Position numbers and translations under genes: made by a program. The notes under the pieces are model-generated. The model made no database searches. It was given only the letters and a program-made list of their open reading frames with translations, and was not told the origin of the DNA. From Candidatus Woesearchaeota archaeon (GTDB taxonomy: Archaea; Nanobdellota; Nanobdellia; SCGC-AAA011-G17; CAYFGV01): a DNA stretch of 40,429 bases. The stretch lies in the NCBI GenBank assembly GCA_964342845.1, contig CAYFGV010000005.1, positions 1 to 40,429 on the forward strand. Reading direction: 5' to 3'. Positions 3,116 through 40,412 of the stretch are shown here, piece after piece. The stretch's first letter is position 1; every line of letters begins with the position of its first letter.

Positions 3116-4915
3116 TTATTCGACTGTAACAGCTTTTGCTAAATTTTTTGGAAGATCAGGGTTATGTCCTTTTAAAACAGTTGTATAGTAAGCTAATAAT
3201 TGTAAAGGAATAACATTTACTATTGGATTTAAAATGTCTGGAGATTCTGGAACTCTTAGAACATAATCAGAAATTTTTTCTATTTCTTTGTCATTATGGT
3301 TGGCTACTGTTATTATTAATCCTTTTCTAGCTTTAACTTCTTGCATGTTGCTTATTATTTTTTCATAGATTGGGTCGTTTTTGTTTGCTATAAAGACTAC
3401 CGGCATATTTTCATCTATTAATGCTATTGGTCCGTGTTTCATTTCTGCTGCTGGATAACCTTCTGCGTGAATATATGAGATTTCTTTTAATTTTAATGCG
3501 CCTTCTAAAGCAACGGGAAAATTTACTCCTCTTCCTAAGAATAAGGCATTCTTTTTATTATAAATTTTTTCTGCTATTTTCTTAACTTGTTTTTTTTGTT
3601 TTAAAGTTTCTTTAACATATTCTGGGATTTTTTTGGTTTCTTCCGTTAAATATTCATAAGTTTTAAGATCAATTTTATTTAGTTTTCTTGCTAAATATAA
3701 GGTTAGTAGAATTAAACAAGCTACTTGACCTGTGAATGCTTTTGTTGAGGCAACACCTATTTCTGGGCCTGCATGGATAAAAATACCTGAGTCAACTTTT
3801 CTTGAGATTGTTGAACCAACTACATTAACTATTCCTAAAGTTGTGCAAAATTTTTTAGCATATTCTAGTGAGGCCAATGTGTCTGCTGTTTCTCCTGATT
3901 GGCTTATTACTATGATTAAATCATTTTCTGTTAGAACTGGGTTTCTGTATCTGAATTCCGAGGCATAATCAACTTCTACTGGGATTTTGCAATACTTTTC
4001 TATTATGTATTTTCCTATAAGGGCGGCATGCCAAGCAGTTCCACAGGCTGTGATTATTATTCTGTTTATTTTCTCTGGGAGTTTTATAGAAAGTCTGATG
4101 TCTTTGTCTATTCTTCCTGCTATTCTGTTGTTTAGGGTTTCTGCTTGTTCAAATATTTCTTTTTCCATGAAATAATCGAAATCGTTTTTTTCTATGGAAT
4201 CTAATTCCCAGTGAATATGCTTTATTTCTCTTTTGACTGTATCTCCGTTTAGTTTTGTTATTTTGTAACTGTCTTTTGTTAATGTTGCTATTTCATTATC
4301 TTCGAGATAGACTGCTTTTTTTGTGTGTTTTAGAAAAGCTGATGTATCTGAAGCTATAAATTTTTCATTTTCTCCTATACCTATAATCAAGGGACTTCCT
4401 TTTTTTGCTCCTATAATTTTGTTTTCTTTTTTGGAGATGATTACTAAACCATAAGTTCCTATTACTCTTTTTAGTGTATTTTTAACTGCTTGTTCTATGT
4501 TGTTTGTATAGTTTTCTTCTATTAGATGTGCTATTACCTCTGAATCTGTTTCTGATTTGAATATGTGTCCTTTTTCTATTAATTGTTTTTTTAAAGTGGA
4601 GAAGTTTTCTATTATTCCGTTGTGGACAATAGTTATTTCTTGTTTACAATCTGTGTGTGGATGGGCGTTTATTTTGTTTGGTTCTCCATGTGTTGCCCAA
4701 CGAGTGTGAGCTATTCCTAAATTTCCTTGTTTAATTTCTTTAAATGAATTTTGTAGTTGTGATATCTTTCCTGCACTTTTTATTATTTCTAATTTATTTT
4801 CTGAAGAAATACAAATTCCTGCTGAGTCATAACCTCTGTATTCTAATCTTTTGAGGCCTTCAATTAGAATGTTAGTTGTGTCTCTGTTTCCGATATAACC
4901 TATAATGCCACACAT
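3116..4915 (-). CDS. glmS: glutamine--fructose-6-phosphate aminotransferase
   Basis: MCGIIG N-terminus, RGYDSAG, HTRWATHG, SQSGETAD, EMKHGP, C-terminal PKNLAKAVTVE. Confidence 0.98.
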   Translation of the reverse strand: MCGIIGYIGNRDTTNILIEGLKRLEYRGYDSAGICISSENKLEIIKSAGKISQLQNSFKEIKQGNLGIAHTRWATHGEPNKINAHPHTDCKQEITIVHNGIIENFSTLKKQLIEKGHIFKSETDSEVIAHLIEENYTNNIEQAVKNTLKRVIGTYGLVIISKKENKIIGAKKGSPLIIGIGENEKFIASDTSAFLKHTKKAVYLEDNEIATLTKDSYKITKLNGDTVKREIKHIHWELDSIEKNDFDYFMEKEIFEQAETLNNRIAGRIDKDIRLSIKLPEKINRIIITACGTAWHAALIGKYIIEKYCKIPVEVDYASEFRYRNPVLTENDLIIVISQSGETADTLASLEYAKKFCTTLGIVNVVGSTISRKVDSGIFIHAGPEIGVASTKAFTGQVACLILLTLYLARKLNKIDLKTYEYLTEETKKIPEYVKETLKQKKQVKKIAEKIYNKKNALFLGRGVNFPVALEGALKLKEISYIHAEGYPAAEMKHGPIALIDENMPVVFIANKNDPIYEKIISNMQEVKARKGLIITVANHNDKEIEKISDYVLRVPESPDILNPIVNVIPLQLLAYYTTVLKGHNPDLPKNLAKAVTVE

Positions 4916-4921
4916 TTTGAT

Positions 4922-4982
4922 AAGGAGGTGCCTAAAGACTGTTTTTAGGCAGTCTTTGGCTGGTTTTTAAAAAAGGGTTGAT
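4922..4982 (-). promoter_or_regulatory. structured glmS 5' region with two alternative hairpins
   Basis: Minus strand GCC-AAAGACTG-CCTAAAAA-CAGTCTTT-A-GGC can alternatively pair as GCCTAAA/TTTAGGC. It is followed by CACCTCCTTA just before the ATG. Confidence 0.4.
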
Positions 4983-16752: not shown

Positions 16753-17073
16753 TTAAGAGTTTTTATTTATTTTGAGGATTTCTAGAGCGTTATTCATTGC
16801 TTGGAGGAGATAGTCTGATCTAATTTTAGGTCCTCTTTCTGTGTACATTATATTTTGTTTTGAGTTGTTGTGTGTTAATTTTGGAAGCTTCACATTATTT
16901 TTAGAGTATGTAACTCTTCCATCTTTGCTTAGAACTAATCTTTCTATGCCTCCTTCTCCATTTGTAGGTTCTACTTTAACCGAATTAGGTGTTATTGTTA
17001 CAGATACGCCATTGTATTTTATGGTTTTTTGATCTGATATTTCTGAGCAATAATCAGATAAAGGACATCTCAT
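16753..17073 (-). CDS. hypothetical protein
   Basis: 106-aa ORF, no motif recognised. Confidence 0.55.
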   Translation of the reverse strand: MRCPLSDYCSEISDQKTIKYNGVSVTITPNSVKVEPTNGEGGIERLVLSKDGRVTYSKNNVKLPKLTHNNSKQNIMYTERGPKIRSDYLLQAMNNALEILKINKNS

Positions 17074-17109
17074 AATGTGATTCTCTTTTAAATAAGTTAT
17101 TTAAATAGT

Positions 17110-17880
17110 TTATTGTGATGTATTTTTTATTATGTAAAATATTTCATTATCTGTTTTAAAAGTTTTATGAGTATATTTTAATCTTTTAAGCATTTGTTCT
17201 AACCAACCTCTTTTTTGGGTTGTCATTTTTTTATTTTTTAGAGTTTTTAATGGAAAAGAGATTACTAAAAATTTAACTTTTAGATTTTTTATTATAAATT
17301 CTGTGTATTTTTTTGGTTTTTCTAGAGAATCTAAGAATTTGAACATTAGGCAGAGGTCTGCTTTTGGTAGTTTTAGAATATTTTTTTCTATTTGTAAGTC
17401 TAGGTTTTTAGCTTTTACATTTTTTAGATGTTTTTTAATTAAAGAAGTATCTAAGTCATATGCGTAGTAGGTTATGTTCTTTAAGTTTGTATATTTTAAT
17501 GAGAATGGGTTTAATCCGCAACCTAGGTCTATGATTGAATTTGGTTTTTTGGTGGTTTTGAAGATTTGTTTGTAAATATAAGGATAATCTTTTAGTCTTT
17601 CTTTTGTAGAGGAATGTGTTTCTAAAATGTTTTTTCCTTTTTTTTGGAACATTCCGTGGGCTAAATTTGCTTGTCTTCTTATTTCTTTTATGAAATCTTT
17701 GTATGTTTTAGATCTTTTTGAGTGTTCTTTAGAGAGAAAGCCTAATGTTTTTTTGTCTTTGGTTAAATTTTCTTTTATTTTTCTTTTTAAGAAGGATTTT
17801 TCTATGTTTTTAAGAGAAGGTTTTTTAGTTATATCTTCTATTATTTCTTTTTCATTTATTTTTTTGTTGTAGATTAGCAT
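17110..17880 (-). CDS. ArmA/Rmt/FmrO-like rRNA methyltransferase (16S m7G1405 family)
   Basis: LETHSSTKERL, IIDLGCGLNPFS, AYDLD, LMFKFLDSLE, ISFPLKTL match the HxSTxER, DxGCGxNP and SFP motifs of the family. Confidence 0.8.
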   Translation of the reverse strand: MLIYNKKINEKEIIEDITKKPSLKNIEKSFLKRKIKENLTKDKKTLGFLSKEHSKRSKTYKDFIKEIRRQANLAHGMFQKKGKNILETHSSTKERLKDYPYIYKQIFKTTKKPNSIIDLGCGLNPFSLKYTNLKNITYYAYDLDTSLIKKHLKNVKAKNLDLQIEKNILKLPKADLCLMFKFLDSLEKPKKYTEFIIKNLKVKFLVISFPLKTLKNKKMTTQKRGWLEQMLKRLKYTHKTFKTDNEIFYIIKNTSQ

Positions 17881-18764
17881 TTTCTTATTTTAGCTACAAA
17901 AAAGCCATCTGTATCATAATCTTGTGGCCAGATTCTTAAACATTTGTTTTTAATTTCTTTGTTGTCTGTTATAGGTTCAGAACCTTTTATATCTATTTTT
18001 TCTAATTTTGCGTTTTTATAGGTTTCTAATAAATTTTCAATTACTTTTTCGTTTTCATCTGGTTCTAAAGAGCAAGTTGAATAAACTAAGATTCCATTTT
18101 TTTTAAGATTTTGAAAAGCAACTTTAATTAATTGTCTTTGGATTCCTGCTAATTGTTTAACTAGGTTAACACTCCACTCTGTTGGTGTTGAAGGAGATTT
18201 TCTTATTATTCCTGTTCCTGAACAAGGTGCGTCTAATAGTACTCTATCTGCTTCTAGGTTTTTAAAAAATCTTCCGTGTTGCTTGGATATTATTGTGTTT
18301 AAAACTCCATTTCTTTGTAAATTAGTTGCTAGAGGTATTAATCTTTTTGTTGAAATATCATTTGCTATTATTAAGCCTGTATTTTTTGCTAAAGCTGCTA
18401 TTTGTGTTGTTTTTGAGCCAGGAGATGCTGCCATGTCTAATATTAATTGATTTTCTTTTATTTCTAGAACTTCTGGAGGTAGCATAGATGTAGAAGATTG
18501 GATGTAAATATATCCTAGTTGATGTTCTATTAGATTGCCTAGGTCTGTTTTTCCTTCTAAATAGAATCCTTGTTTACACCAGGGTGTTTGAGTTAGTTTA
18601 TATTTTTTTAATCTGTTTTTTATTTTTTTAATATCTGTTTTTAATGTGTTTACTCTGAATGATTTTCTCGGCGGCTTTTCACAGTATTTTATGAATTCTT
18701 TTAGATTAGTTAATTCTTTATAATGATCTAGGAAAGATTGTTTGAATTTTGGTTTTTTTAGCAT
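17874..18764 (-). CDS. RsmB/NOP2 (RsmF-like) RNA m5C methyltransferase
   Basis: RVNTLK, YIQS, LDMAASPGSKT, LLDAPCSGTG, YSTCS, ENE, DGFFVA. ATG at 18764, separate from the radical SAM gene across the gap. Confidence 0.92.
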   Translation of the reverse strand: MLKKPKFKQSFLDHYKELTNLKEFIKYCEKPPRKSFRVNTLKTDIKKIKNRLKKYKLTQTPWCKQGFYLEGKTDLGNLIEHQLGYIYIQSSTSMLPPEVLEIKENQLILDMAASPGSKTTQIAALAKNTGLIIANDISTKRLIPLATNLQRNGVLNTIISKQHGRFFKNLEADRVLLDAPCSGTGIIRKSPSTPTEWSVNLVKQLAGIQRQLIKVAFQNLKKNGILVYSTCSLEPDENEKVIENLLETYKNAKLEKIDIKGSEPITDNKEIKNKCLRIWPQDYDTDGFFVAKIRKC

Positions 18765-18781
18765 AAAAGAGTTAGGTTTTA

Positions 18782-18881
18782 NNNNNNNNNNNNNNNNNNN
18801 NNNNNNNNNNNNNNNNNNNNNNNNNNNNNNNNNNNNNNNNNNNNNNNNNNNNNNNNNNNNNNNNNNNNNNNNNNNNNNNNN
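18782..18881. other. assembly gap (100 N)
   Basis: Run of exactly 100 N, likely a placeholder of unknown true size. Confidence 0.99.
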
Positions 18882-19775
18882 TTCTTTTTTAAATTCTTCT
18901 GAAAATAAATTAGAATCTAATTCGTTAATTTGTTTTTTCCAGTTTATTTTAGGTAATTTAGTTAAATTGCTTGTTAGTTGTTTTCCTAAACTTTTTTGAA
19001 TGTATTTTGCTTGTTCTGAACCGAATAGTTTGGTTGCTGGGAATTTAGTGAATGCGTTTGCACCTGCTTGTATTAGTTCTGGAACTTCTTTGTATCTTCT
19101 TGCTGTTGTGCCTGCGATTATTTCTAAATTAGGAAATTCTTTTCTTGTTTGTTTTATCCACCAGAAATATTCTTTTTTAGGAGGACCATCTTTATTTTCA
19201 TATATAGTTGTTTTTATTGGTTTTAATGGGTAGAAAGTTATTCTGTTTAATTTATATTTTTTTATGAATTCTTTTAAAGTTTTGAAGTCTTCTTTTGTTT
19301 CTCCTAAGCCTATGATTATTGTTATACTTCTTTTTAGGTTTTTAGAGTTTTTGAACATTTCTTCATAGTTTTTAATTGGTTTATCTGGACAGATTTCAGA
19401 ATGAAGTTTTGTGTTTGTTGTCTCTATAGAAGAGACTATGCCTTTTATGTATGGTTTGAAAAGTTCTAAATCTTGTTTTTCAATTACTCCTAGATTTATC
19501 CATATCTTTTCTTTGTAGACTGAGGTTATTAATTTTAAGATGTTTTCTAATTCTTTTGGAGTGTATATCTTGTACCCTCCGGTTAAGAATTCTATTCTCC
19601 AGTTTAGGTTTTTACATAGAAGGGTTTCTACGATTAAAGAAGCTAAAGATCTTTTTGCTTTTTTTGGATGTTTTATTTTATGTTTTATTGTTGATCTATA
19701 ACAGAATTTACAAGTTCCTTTGTCGCAGTACCAACTAAGGAAAAGACATCTTCCGTACCAACAGTTAGATTTCAT
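18882..19775 (-). CDS. BioB-like radical SAM protein, 3' end lost in the gap
   Basis: WYCDKGTCKFCY (CX4CX2C), EFLTGG, IETTN...ICPDKP, IIIGLGET, GANAFTKFP. Confidence 0.85.
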
Positions 19776-19812
19776 AAGATTTTTGGAGAATTAGACGTTT
19801 ATAAAGGATTTG

Positions 19813-19829
19813 AAATGTGTGAGCCGAGA
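19813..19829 (-). repeat. degenerate copy of the tRNA-Gly 3' end (att-like direct repeat)
   Basis: aaatgtgtgagccgaga (19813-19829) versus aaatgcgcgagccgaga (21845-21861): 15 of 17 identical. Confidence 0.7.
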
Positions 19830-19921
19830 GAATTTAATTCTGAAAGTAATTATTTAAGATAATCGATAAATTTATTAATAGGCTTTCATCTACAAAACTA
19901 ATGTAAATAAGGAGTGTAAGA

Positions 19922-20374
19922 ATGAATAAAACATTATTTGTTATTTGTTTATTGGTAGGGGTTCTGTTTTTAACTGGATGTGGTTTAACAGGAAGCGCAA
20001 TTGTTGACCCTATAGAATATCAATGTGAAATTTGTGAAGAATGCCCAGAGGAAAAAGCATTAGTAACGGCAGGTTTTAGGGATTATTACTATAATGAATA
20101 CGACGAAGATGAGATACTAATTTATTTCAATGTTTATAACTATGGCTATGTTGAAGCCAAGCACATTTATGTAACATGCAAAGTTACAGACGCCAACGAT
20201 AGAGTTGTAGTCGAAGAAGAGAGATATGTCGGAAATCTGGCTTCTAATTCTGTGGATGTTGTATATATGGAAATACCAGATCCTTACGAAGATGACGACG
20301 AAGTTCTATATTTTTATTGTGAGGCTAGTGATTGCGTCGATTGTGAATTAATAGCTCAAAGATTTTCAATGTAA
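19922..20374 (+). CDS. predicted lipoprotein, possibly Ig/CARDB-like
   Basis: Signal peptide ending LFLTGC, Cys clusters, beta-rich acidic domain (FNVYNYG...VGNL). Confidence 0.75.
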   Translation: MNKTLFVICLLVGVLFLTGCGLTGSAIVDPIEYQCEICEECPEEKALVTAGFRDYYYNEYDEDEILIYFNVYNYGYVEAKHIYVTCKVTDANDRVVVEEERYVGNLASNSVDVVYMEIPDPYEDDDEVLYFYCEASDCVDCELIAQRFSM

Positions 20375-20450
20375 AACCTTTATTTCTTCTTTTTTCTAAA
20401 TAAGGGCTGTATATTTAACATTAGATTTAAATAACTGTTTACTTTCCTTA

Positions 20451-21020
20451 TTGATTATGAAAAAACTTGCGAGATTTGATTTTACTTCAAATTCAATCAA
20501 TCAAGGAATGAGAGAAGGAGTTGAAGAAGCGGTTAGAAACCATCTTGTTTCACTAGTTCCTAGTATCGTAGATAGACAAGGAAAATTGCCTCCTTATATT
20601 ACTATGGAGGTTGGTTTTTATACAAATTTGATGGAAGAGGCTAGACGATGTTATGAATTTGGTTTATTTCATGCGACAGTTTCAATGATAGGGATAGCAG
20701 CAGAAAGATTTTGTATGGAACTGTCAGATTACTTAAAGTTTTTTGTAAATGAAAAACAAATCTCAGAAAAGGAGTTATATAATAAGGGATTTAACCACTA
20801 TAGGAGATTGTTATTTTTGCTGAAGGCGCAGTTAATTACAAAGGATACCTATAATCTTTTAGATGAAATTAGAACTATTAGGAATAAATACATTCACCCG
20901 TCTGAGATTGAAGATGTTGAAGAGGATGCGATAATTGTTATAAAAAAGTTTAATGAAATAATTAAATCAAGATTTTCTGAGAGGTATGAAATTAGAGAAG
21001 GCAAAATAGTGCCCAGGTAG
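20451..21020 (+). CDS. DUF4145/HEPN-like protein
   Basis: EARRCYEFGLFHATVSMIGIAAE helix and RNKYIH (Rx4H) motif. Confidence 0.7.
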   Translation: MIMKKLARFDFTSNSINQGMREGVEEAVRNHLVSLVPSIVDRQGKLPPYITMEVGFYTNLMEEARRCYEFGLFHATVSMIGIAAERFCMELSDYLKFFVNEKQISEKELYNKGFNHYRRLLFLLKAQLITKDTYNLLDEIRTIRNKYIHPSEIEDVEEDAIIVIKKFNEIIKSRFSERYEIREGKIVPR

Positions 21021-21113
21021 TGAATATTATGAATTTCTGCTTAAAACTTTCTAGCATTGCAAGGATTTCTACACGCGCGTGAAGTTTATAAAGGAGTTTA
21101 GCTTATTAGATGT

Positions 21114-21866
21114 ATGGTTCATAAAAAAAGAGGAGAAATAATAAGACTTATTGAAAACGATGTTTCTATACCAAAAATTTCAAAAAGACTAAATGTTGGA
21201 AAATCGACTATATATTATCATTATAAAAAAATAAAAGGTAGAAAATATCAGAAGGCGAGAATACCTGAAGATGATGAAGTTTTAGGAGAATTTTTGGGTA
21301 TATTTGCTGGAGACGGGAGTTTTATTTTTGAAAAAAAATATAGCCACTATAAAATATCAATCTCTCTTCATGCAGTTGATGATAAAGATTATGCAGAGTA
21401 TATAAGGGGTTTAATTAGGAAAAACTTTAATAAAATTGCAAGACAATATGTTAGAAGCAATATAAATTCTTTAACTATTGAATTTTATTCAAAAGATATA
21501 TATGGGATGATAAAAGAATATTTGAATATATATCCAAATAAAACCTATGACGTTCATATAAAAAGGCAGTTAGATTCGTTATCTGATAAATTTCTAATCT
21601 CTTTTACGAGAGGGATAGTTGATACGGATGGTTGTCATAAGAAGGACGGCCGTATAGTTTTGTGTCTTACGTCGAAAGAAATGATAAATCAAGTTTCTCT
21701 AATTCTTAAAAACTTTGAGATTGGTAATAAAGTATATATTAGGAGAAAGAAATTACCTTCTAGGACTCAATACGAATTAACCATACCTAAAAGATATGTA
21801 AATAGGTATATCTCTTATATTGGATTTTCTAATAAAAGAAAATTAAATGCGCGAGCCGAGATTTGA
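21114..21866 (+). CDS. free-standing HTH plus double-motif LAGLIDADG endonuclease
   Basis: N-terminal HTH (SIPKISKRLNVGKSTIYYH); motifs EFLGIFAGDGS and FTRGIVDTDGC. The stop codon lies in the antisense of the tRNA-Gly T loop. Confidence 0.9.
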   Translation: MVHKKRGEIIRLIENDVSIPKISKRLNVGKSTIYYHYKKIKGRKYQKARIPEDDEVLGEFLGIFAGDGSFIFEKKYSHYKISISLHAVDDKDYAEYIRGLIRKNFNKIARQYVRSNINSLTIEFYSKDIYGMIKEYLNIYPNKTYDVHIKRQLDSLSDKFLISFTRGIVDTDGCHKKDGRIVLCLTSKEMINQVSLILKNFEIGNKVYIRRKKLPSRTQYELTIPKRYVNRYISYIGFSNKRKLNARAEI

Positions 21867-21940
21867 ATTCCCGATCTTTTAAAAGATTCTCGGGTCACAA
21901 GATTGGCAACCTTGTATTCTAACCACTGAACTACTCACGC
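21848..21940 (-). tRNA. tRNA-Gly(GCC) with 21-nt intron at 53/54 (21868-21888)
   Basis: GCGTGAG...CAAGG-TTGCCAA-TCTTG-TGAC-CCGAG[AATCTTTTAAAAGATCGGGAA]TTCAAAT-CTCGG-CTCGCGC-A. BHB central helix CCCG/CGGG is perfect; inner helix ATCTTT/AAAGAT. Confidence 0.93.
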
Positions 21941-21987
21941 ATCTGCTTTTAGTAAAAAGTTAAGAATATTTAAGGTTTATGGTTGAT

Positions 21988-22635
21988 TTAATCTTCTTTA
22001 TTTTTCTTTTTAAATATTTGTTCTCCTTCTTTTATTAAACTCTTTAATCTTGAATCATTAAATCTTGTAAATAAATCAGTACCTTGAAGTATAGTTAAAT
22101 ATTTTCTTAATTCAGCCTCAAGCTTTGAGTATACTCCTTCTAGAGAGCTTGGTTCTTTTTCAAATCTTCTTTTTCTGAATTTTTGACTGTAAATATGGGT
22201 TATTTTAAGATATCTTTGTAGATATTCTTCTTCTCTTTCGTTGTGTTGTTTGAATGTGCCTAACCTCATGAGTAAGCATTCAACATTCCCTTTGTATGTA
22301 AGGAAAATTTCTCTTTCTTTTACTATTTGGGGTAGCTTACTCTCTTCGAATTCAGTAACTTTAGTTTTTAAATCAAAATGTGTTGTTTTAGTATATTCTT
22401 CTGGTTTAATAGCAAATTTGCTCATCATTTTTGCAAGATATACATTTACATCTTCATCAAAAACAGTTTCATTTGATTCCATTTTTAGTCTAATTCTTGT
22501 TCTTAGGATTTTGTTTAAGAAAAAGAAATCAATTGGTTCTGCGGCGAATTCACGTATATATCTGGTTTCCCCTTGACTTTCTGTATTCGGGACTAAAGTA
22601 CAATATGAGAGATCTAAATAAGATGGGTTTTCCAT
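21988..22635 (-). CDS. hypothetical protein
   Basis: 215-aa helical ORF with a TATA-like box upstream. Confidence 0.7.
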   Translation of the reverse strand: MENPSYLDLSYCTLVPNTESQGETRYIREFAAEPIDFFFLNKILRTRIRLKMESNETVFDEDVNVYLAKMMSKFAIKPEEYTKTTHFDLKTKVTEFEESKLPQIVKEREIFLTYKGNVECLLMRLGTFKQHNEREEEYLQRYLKITHIYSQKFRKRRFEKEPSSLEGVYSKLEAELRKYLTILQGTDLFTRFNDSRLKSLIKEGEQIFKKKNKED

Positions 22636-22667
22636 TTTTTATGTATCTTTTGAATCTTTATAAAGTT

Positions 22668-23363
22668 TTAGGCTATTATTTCTATATTTTCAAAATAGGG
22701 TTTAATTGTTTCTTTTAATTTATTCAAATATTCTTTTGAGGTGTCTTTTTTTGTTTTGAATTTAATATCTATAAATTTTCCTTGATTTTTAAATGGTTGT
22801 AAACAGTATTTCTTTGGTTTTTTTCTTGTTATAGAATTTAACCATTTTGCTATTTTTATCATTTCTTCTTGAGTGTGGATGTCTTGTATAATTGTTGTTC
22901 TGAATTCGTAGTATTCTAAATTAGAAATTAATTTTATGCTTTTTTCAATATTTTCTAGGTCAACTTTTGAGTTTGTTACTTTTTGATAATTTTCTTTACT
23001 TGATTTTATGTCCATTGCAATGTAGTCTACTAAATGTGTTACTTCTTTTATTTTTTCTGGAAAACTTCCATTTGTATCGATTTTTATTAGGTATCCTAGT
23101 TTTTTAATTTTTTTTAGGAAATTTAAGTTTAGAGATAATAATGGTTCTCCACCAGTTATACAAACTCCTTCTAATTGTTTTTTTCTTTTAATTAAGAAAT
23201 CTATAGTTTCTTTTTCTGAGATATTTGTTTTATTTTCTTTTAAGACAAGTTCCGGGTTATGACAAAAACCACAATTAAAGTTACATCCAAAAAGAAAAAT
23301 AGTGGATGCTATCTTTTCTGGGTAATCTATTAGTGTTATTTTTTGTAAACCTTTAATTTTCAT
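22668..23363 (-). CDS. nrdG: anaerobic ribonucleotide reductase activating enzyme
   Basis: GCNFNCGFCHNP, ITGGEP, KIDTNG, YEFRTT; in an operon with nrdD. Confidence 0.95.
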   Translation of the reverse strand: MKIKGLQKITLIDYPEKIASTIFLFGCNFNCGFCHNPELVLKENKTNISEKETIDFLIKRKKQLEGVCITGGEPLLSLNLNFLKKIKKLGYLIKIDTNGSFPEKIKEVTHLVDYIAMDIKSSKENYQKVTNSKVDLENIEKSIKLISNLEYYEFRTTIIQDIHTQEEMIKIAKWLNSITRKKPKKYCLQPFKNQGKFIDIKFKTKKDTSKEYLNKLKETIKPYFENIEIIA

Positions 23364-40290: not shown

Positions 40291-40412
40291 TCCCTGTGGC
40301 CGGATTTGAACCAGCGACCTCTCGGGATCAGCTGACTATTTTTCATGTATAGCTAAGTAGCCTTATCAAATAGCATCTACAGCCGAATGCTCCACCGTTG
40401 AGCTACACAGGG
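40291..40412 (-). tRNA. tRNA-Tyr(GTA) with a 50-nt anticodon-loop intron (about 40327-40376)
   Basis: CCCTGTG/CACAGGG acceptor (C1-G72), TTCGG-CTGTAG...CCGAG anticodon arm, GCTGG-TTCAAAT-CCGGC T arm. Exact intron boundary (37/38 or 38/39) uncertain. Confidence 0.92.

Follow-up and report, generated by a model that had tools for sequence, protein, structure and literature searches.

Our comparison of related loci suggests that an islet at positions 19,813 to 21,940 of a 40,429-nucleotide stretch of DNA from Candidatus Woesearchaeota archaeon (contig CAYFGV010000005.1 of assembly GCA_964342845.1; henceforth the window, meaning the whole stretch) probably records two overlapping histories at a single tRNA hotspot: the entry of a homing endonuclease cassette and a likely former integrase islet. 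The islet (Table 1) comprises a tRNA-Gly(GCC) gene with a short intron, a LAGLIDADG open reading frame (ORF) that converges on the tRNA, two cargo genes and a distal copy of the tRNA 3′ end. What the comparison shows is an endonuclease gene lying in a tRNA gene and flanked on one side by a working tRNA; in many cases the former 3′ end can be found just past the start of the endonuclease gene.

We drew family loci from genomes, metagenomes and 240 genomes of the host's order (fetching the top-ranked of 444 matches in the order) and scored 223 loci, of which 184 were distinct and 171 had enough room to be assessed. In 151 of these 171 distinct DPANN-family loci, a tRNA gene lay no more than about 270 nt from the end of the endonuclease gene; the same held for 0 of 66 control windows. 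Overlap between ORF and tRNA is routine in the family, because it occurred in 50 of 64 convergent cases (the arrangement that the initial annotation had proposed to count across DPANN) and in 58 of 90 same-direction cases. In the window the overlap spans 19 nt, and the coordinates first given for it hold: the last 19 nt of the ORF are antisense to the 3′ exon, and its TGA stops 1 nt short of the 53/54 intron. In the family the stop codon is supplied by the antisense T loop whether or not an intron is present; the position of the stop codon beside the intron was hence rejected as a designed feature, given that loci without an intron (for example L036 and L048) likewise obtain a TGA from the antisense T loop, at an identical offset of −19. 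Viral matches (41 loci) were rejected as family members, being long intein-like ORFs with no adjacent tRNA among the matches listed.

A quick tree of 110 proteins, in which the tRNA labels of four rows (neighbouring or misread tRNAs) were corrected, contained clades that tracked the isoacceptor: Gly-GCC (21 rows after the corrections, support 92), Gly-TCC (12 rows, support 99), Gly-CCC with some Glu-CTC (22 rows, support 99), Pro-TGG (6 rows, support 99) and Ala (24 rows, support 91). Gene orientation flipped within clades (21 anticodon vs. 17 orientation changes on the 110 rows), a pattern which fits target-specific insertion better than inherited gene order. The gene is also optional: in a survey of the order, in which we parsed 171 Gly-GCC genes (160 of them with at least 400 nt of 3′ flank), an intact copy was present at 10 of the 160 sites, in a patchy distribution with empty and decayed alleles. 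Frameshifted copies occur in the family, and two genomes (G005 and G033) have kept the intron-bearing tRNA of locus L084 with the gene reduced to about 8 codons. At L292 (G119), an FSNKRK-like tail situated about 30 nt beyond a tRNA-Gly(GCC) without an intron is a possible second remnant.

The initial annotation had suggested that a free-standing endonuclease targets tRNA 3′ ends and replaces them, and at the level of the family both parts of this idea are supported by sequence comparison. A self-match search for distal copies found few of them, missing displaced fragments because these differ from the resident tRNA. With a profile of Gly 3′ ends instead, 11 of 29 Gly-convergent loci yielded orphan fragments; these lie about 750–960 nt out, directly past the gene start, and differ from the resident 3′ end. 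Across all tRNA types, a 3′ fragment lay past the gene start in 16 of 65 convergent pairs (15 if L048 and L115 are counted as one), with controls at 1/65, 2/65 and 1/51, while same-direction loci gave a weak mirror signal (5′ fragments in 6 of 90 vs. 4, 3 and 0 of 77 in controls). Displaced fragments sit about 45–230 nt from the gene start, and the longest begin at about tRNA positions 45–49. Two genomes of the same genus illustrate the arrangement most clearly: G224 has the order tRNA, promoter and integrase, and G223 has another tRNA allele followed by the endonuclease, after which come a 3′ end of the G224 type, that same promoter and the integrase. At L041 the tRNA-Gly 3′ end is present in three tandem copies, spaced about 83 nt apart, beyond the endonuclease start. 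At L093 (positions 4908–4935) a tRNA-Gly 3′ fragment lies on the opposite strand, upstream of a same-direction endonuclease, which suggests an inversion after insertion.

The 250-residue product of the ORF in the window matches PF14528 (E-value 8e-13) and, weakly, an N-terminal helix-turn-helix (HTH). D67 and D172, the acidic ends of its two LAGLIDADG helices, are conserved without exception across the 38 sequences aligned. A structure model (pLDDT 94) matched PI-PfuI and I-DmoI in Foldseek with E-values of about 1e-9, and the best sequence and fold matches overall were the PI-PfuI endonuclease domain, I-DmoI and I-Tsp061I, at 16–20% identity. Judged by sequence and model, it looks like an active monomeric LAGLIDADG endonuclease, with activity being a prediction. 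The three reference enzymes are likewise monomeric and double-motif, but their coding sequences lie in rRNA introns or inteins, and they lack the N-terminal HTH found here. Unlike such intron- or intein-encoded endonucleases, the ORF is a separate gene outside the 21-nt intron. A free-standing endonuclease gene adjoins a tRNA whose intron carries no endonuclease.

We propose that the ORF is a free-standing homing endonuclease from a DPANN clade specific for tRNA-Gly(GCC) genes, and that the mobile unit would be the gene together with its own tRNA copy, or at least the 3′ part of it. The enzyme would cut naive tRNA-Gly(GCC) genes near the variable loop and T stem; we place the putative cut or crossover region at about positions 45–49 because the longest displaced fragments begin there. 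Repair would then copy the cassette, with the 5′ part of the tRNA and the displaced fragment serving as homology arms, and the resident allele would escape cutting through an intron (at 53/54, at 59/60 or in the anticodon loop) or through a changed variable loop or T stem. At the locus in the window, this role would most likely fall to the 53/54 intron, which probably moved together with the gene. As a separate history, an integrase islet at the same tRNA would have left the cargo and the distal repeat, its integrase having since been lost. More broadly, and tentatively, tRNA-targeting endonuclease cassettes might be a main engine of tRNA gene turnover in DPANN: each clade would cut the gene of one isoacceptor and replace it with a resistant allele, and non-canonical bulge-helix-bulge (BHB) introns (53/54, 59/60) and odd T stems would spread by homing and outlast the gene. 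Such a process would amount to collaborative homing on a cellular chromosome, the introns involved being protein-spliced tRNA introns.

The idea that the intron destroys the cut site, also put forward in the initial annotation, is partly supported by sequence comparison. T-arm introns were present in 23 of 70 convergent tRNAs, 8 of 99 same-direction tRNAs and 26 of 299 endonuclease-free tRNAs (statistics that ignore kinship), and, for Gly-GCC only, in 8 of 25 tRNAs beside the gene vs. 18 of 146 gene-free ones; T-arm introns are thus enriched beside the gene and not required. Of the 19 residents of the Gly-GCC clade, 9 carry an intron in the T arm and 5 in the anticodon loop; the other 5 are intron-less, and all of these have a changed variable loop or T stem. 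An uninterrupted consensus from anticodon to T arm was found in 0 of 19 clade residents vs. 64 of 150 gene-free tRNAs (p=8e-5). The tRNA pattern used in the order skips long, multiple and T-loop introns, and 59 of the 240 genomes gave no match; with all 59 set as non-intact, the depletion persisted (p=0.002). Within the order alone, the association between any intron and the gene gave p=0.047. At three loci (L031, L148, L155) the displaced fragment spans the junction and is without the resident tRNA's T-arm intron. The sister protein's locus, L084, has an almost identical intron in a different tRNA body, and that intron-bearing tRNA is the one retained in G005 and G033. Beside another close family member (L088), a tRNA-Gly(GCC) carries an 89-nt intron at 59/60.

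Several observations weigh against this picture. In the order alone, the 53/54 intron showed no association with the gene (1/10 vs. 18/150, p=1.0), with 18 of 19 order tRNAs bearing this intron having no adjacent intact gene, and a comparison of independent pairs on the tree gave a median p of 1 from only 7 pairs, which leaves it with no power. The co-occurrence of intron and endonuclease that had been proposed as a check is therefore seen family-wide and is null in these two tests. Moreover, kinship is disregarded in the Fisher tests, the background was drawn from a single order whereas the family loci represent several DPANN groups, intron positions, called by alignment, are approximate, and 5 of the 19 Gly-GCC clade members are intron-less. 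As for 3′-end replacement, 49 of 65 convergent pairs have no fragment, the same-direction signal is weak, and the present locus has no fragment at the gene start, its only copy being 14 nt long and two genes further on; displaced fragments could also stem from integrase action in trans. Because the order-only and independent-pair tests were null and some residents are intron-less, we interpret the intron as one possible shield among several and not as a rule.

The distal copy bears on the second history. It matches the tRNA 3′ end at 15 of 17 positions, as originally reported, but only 14 of these positions lie inside the tRNA, 12 of them matching, the remaining three bases being downstream Ts. 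None of 100 shuffled versions of the window produced such a match; apart from the tRNA itself, the genome holds no other match with two mismatches or fewer, and the copy marks a strand switch. An extension of the copy toward the intron end was faint (p=0.07) and was not accepted. The A69 and the C2-A71 mismatch in the copy are present as first described, and weight had been given to A69, which pairs with U4 where the resident tRNA has a U4-G69 wobble. That argument fails: among 151 relatives, U4-G69 occurs in 16, U4-A69 in 2 and G71 in all 151, for which reason we read the copy as carrying two G-to-A decay changes, one of them giving A71.

The islet indeed has no detectable integrase or transposase, as had been noted: a tRNA-associated-integrase profile found no remnant in the six frames of positions 17001–23000 or among the ORFs of the genome, whose single PF00589 gene lies on a different contig. 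Elsewhere in the order, however, integrases explain comparable repeats. Short same-strand copies of the 3′ end, 12–14 nt long like the distal copy here, are present at 8 of 145 endonuclease-free Gly-GCC sites (9 copies, vs. 0 on the other strand), where they enclose toxin-antitoxin, Fic or other genes or precede a tyrosine integrase, directly so in G079 and G084. A tyrosine integrase family of roughly 415 residues (L415–L444) is found in 43 of the 240 genomes, often several times per genome. In the great majority of cases the integrase gene sits immediately 3′ of a tRNA gene (for Gly, Leu, Ser, Glu, Ala, Cys and other amino acids), the tRNA being Gly-GCC in 5 of 30 fetched loci. G001, the only genome of the same family as the host, has an intron-less tRNA-Gly that is followed by an integrase (+66) and by a 13/14 copy (+4100), and no endonuclease; an integrase origin of the repeat, which the initial annotation had named as a refutation of its own proposal, is thus seen in relatives and not inside this islet. 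Integrase-less cassettes bounded by 12–14-nt tRNA-Gly 3′-end copies were seen at L374 (G189), L407 (G016), L280 (G097) and L333 (G181), and G189 has up to three tandem copies around toxin-antitoxin pairs, resembling an accreting cassette array. We also found rsmF in the fetched flank of 70 of 171 Gly-GCC loci, downstream, as here, in 55; it is the usual downstream neighbour of this tRNA in the order, at a gap ranging from about zero to more than 3 kb, and tRNA-Gly(GCC) is a hotspot.

We accordingly lean towards the two cargo genes and the 14-nt repeat being the remains of a tyrosine-integrase islet whose integrase is gone, with the repeat as its attR-type remnant. It is less likely, though conceivable, that the repeat is an endonuclease-displaced end pushed off by a later insertion of cargo, and some other origin is improbable. 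The initial proposal that the endonuclease itself carries the cargo did not survive: displaced fragments lie at the gene start, and no cargo homologues were found beside endonucleases elsewhere. The same evidence makes it unlikely that the endonuclease and both cargo genes form one endonuclease-inserted unit with the distal repeat as the original 3′ end. Such a unit would account for a repeat beyond chance at a strand switch, for the faint extension, for the missing integrase remnant and for displaced ends being common in the Gly-GCC clade; yet family fragments keep their short distance from the gene start, none was found beyond cargo genes when the other 28 of 29 Gly-convergent loci were searched, attachment (att)-type copies are as long as the repeat, and A71 is found in 0 of 151 tRNAs.

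Slightly less probable still is a passenger role for the endonuclease genes, on minimal islets that tRNA-targeting tyrosine integrases would move in trans, with the fragments being att sites and no tRNA gene being cut. Intron gain by a tRNA through an integrating element has been described (PMC3293823, in the portion available), the integrase family is widespread and sits mostly directly 3′ of tRNAs, Gly-GCC included, and integrase-less islets with 3′-end copies exist without an endonuclease. However, passengers would leave unexplained the fidelity of clades to isoacceptors, the invariant catalytic aspartates, the occurrence of both orientations and the missing intact consensus alleles beside the gene, and several fragments extend to the variable loop whereas att copies measure only 12–14 nt. 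Finally, domesticated LAGLIDADG proteins of the WhiA type have lost their catalytic residues and are fixed in presence, and BHB introns are spliced by a host enzyme; a domesticated DNA- or RNA-binding protein (a WhiA-like regulator or a tRNA-intron maturase) retained beside its tRNA is thus very improbable here, despite the N-terminal HTH, WhiA among the lower fold matches and the enrichment of introns beside the gene, given intact acidic motifs, presence at so few Gly-GCC sites, decayed and frameshifted copies and many intron-less partner tRNAs. We therefore retain a homing cassette overlapped by a likely former integrase islet as the preferred reading.

Once spliced in silico, the tRNA is a normal 72-nt tRNA-Gly(gcc) according to ARAGORN, and the gene matches Rfam with an E-value of 5e-7. 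Its 21-nt intron is housed in a BHB fold in the centroid structure, although folding energy alone was not significant (z −1.2). Two further intron-bearing tRNAs lie at positions 720–815 and 40291–40412 of the window, both missed by default ARAGORN, and the genome has 21 Rfam tRNA matches, many with anticodon-loop introns. Contigs assembled from 4 of 15 sequencing runs contained no joint skipping the islet or the gene, at a depth too low to be informative, and synteny with the two immediate flank genes was not traceable in 5 genomes. PADLOC returned nothing beyond weak HTH and HEPN-like matches.

Table 1 Features of the tRNA-Gly(GCC) islet and its flanks (window coordinates)
Feature	Position	Strand	Evidence or remark
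tRNA-Gly(GCC), whole gene	21940-21848	-	ARAGORN on spliced sequence; Rfam
tRNA-Gly(GCC) exon 1, up to position 53	21889..21940	-	ARAGORN, Rfam
tRNA-Gly(GCC) intron, 21 nt, bulge-helix-bulge, at 53/54	21868..21888	-	Splicing and fold
tRNA-Gly exon 2, T loop to discriminator; antisense overlap by last 19 nt of endonuclease ORF	21848..21867	-	
HTH and monomeric double-motif LAGLIDADG endonuclease ORF, 250 aa	21114..21866	+	PF14528
Promoter-like element, ~60 bp, TATA box at its end	21034..21096	+	Repeated before 5 other genes of the same genome
DUF4145 (HEPN-like) protein, cargo	20451..21020	+	Rare: 3 other genomes of 240 in the order
Lipoprotein-like protein, 150 aa, cargo	19922..20374	+	No Pfam match; leads only CARDB/DUF7490-like
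Decayed direct copy of tRNA 3′ end, 12/14 inside tRNA plus 3 Ts	19813..19829	-	Sequence match
Flank: radical SAM gene and rsmF/RsmB methyltransferase, single ORF spanning 100-N scaffold gap	17874..19775	-	
Flank: 215-aa ORF, family unknown, upstream of tRNA	21988..22635	-	

Six genes in this genome follow a copy of the promoter-like element. One is the endonuclease and another a LAGLIDADG_2 gene that has a radA-like gene downstream of it; two are Bro-N genes, and the remaining two have no match in Pfam. Besides the copy in the islet, it occurs in the host genome (G000) at C10:2737-2799, C14:1799-1853, C13:3760-3824, C16:8608-8666 and C4:13157-13234, and the six genes may possibly form a regulon of selfish genes. 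Related CGCGT-type motifs and short tandem repeats lie upstream of several members of the endonuclease family. On the far side of the islet, a TATA-like box lies after the distal tRNA copy and before the radical SAM gene. The apparent 633-residue radical SAM/rsmF ORF contains the scaffold gap at 18783–18882, and the fusion may be an assembly artefact. Beside rsmF, at positions 17110–17880, this DPANN archaeon encodes an FmrO/ArmA-like rRNA methyltransferase (PF07091).

The gain of introns at odd positions in archaeal tRNA genes is a long-standing question, for which defence against integrating elements has been proposed previously (PMC3293823, in the part accessible to us). The endonuclease family offers a concrete candidate agent, a predicted cut region and natural pairs of resident and displaced alleles with and without the intron; it also supplies many small isoacceptor-specific meganuclease candidates, and cautions that DPANN genomes may contain tRNA alleles of foreign origin. 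The islet's cargo is ordinary. We found no description of tRNA-abutting DPANN endonucleases in the literature searched, which lay outside subscription papers and supplements, and the arrangement is apparently undescribed in archaea, while its component parts have precedents.

One precedent is provided by pNOB8-type integrase elements at archaeal tRNA genes, in connection with which tRNA introns were proposed as a guard, citing Randau and Soll. According to the accessible text (PMC3293823), these share with our locus a direct repeat of the tRNA end, an integrase beside the tRNA (here, in relatives) and element-borne intron gain; they differ in that the islet studied here has no integrase and that intron spread is proposed to be driven by an endonuclease. 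Phage T4 SegB is likewise a free-standing homing endonuclease in a tRNA gene region, but belongs to the GIY-YIG family and targets a tRNA intergenic region, with no tRNA replacement described in the sections available (PMC2988022). The layout of displaced 3′ ends in the family is that of the mobile endonuclease ORFs (mORFs) of fungal mitochondria (Allomyces macrogynus atp6 and Glomus atp6, atp9, cox2 and nad3; PMC3630166, as far as its accessible text goes), in which an endonuclease gene enters a host gene with a foreign 3′ part and the native 3′ part, displaced beyond the element, resembles that of relatives, as in G223 vs. G224. There, however, the target is a protein gene and the fusion is in frame, whereas here an archaeal tRNA gene is targeted, with an ORF that is often antisense and not fused in frame and a replacing copy that may carry a BHB intron. 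Finally, in the collaborative homing of F-CphI and the psbA group I intron of cyanophage S-PM2 (PMC6083498, PMC2988022, both as available in part), a free-standing endonuclease also lies beside an intron-bearing gene, with the intron inferred to block self-cleavage. The system described here would differ in using a LAGLIDADG enzyme, with predicted cleavage, on a cellular chromosome and a protein-spliced tRNA intron of 20–30 nt, which would be one means of escape among several.
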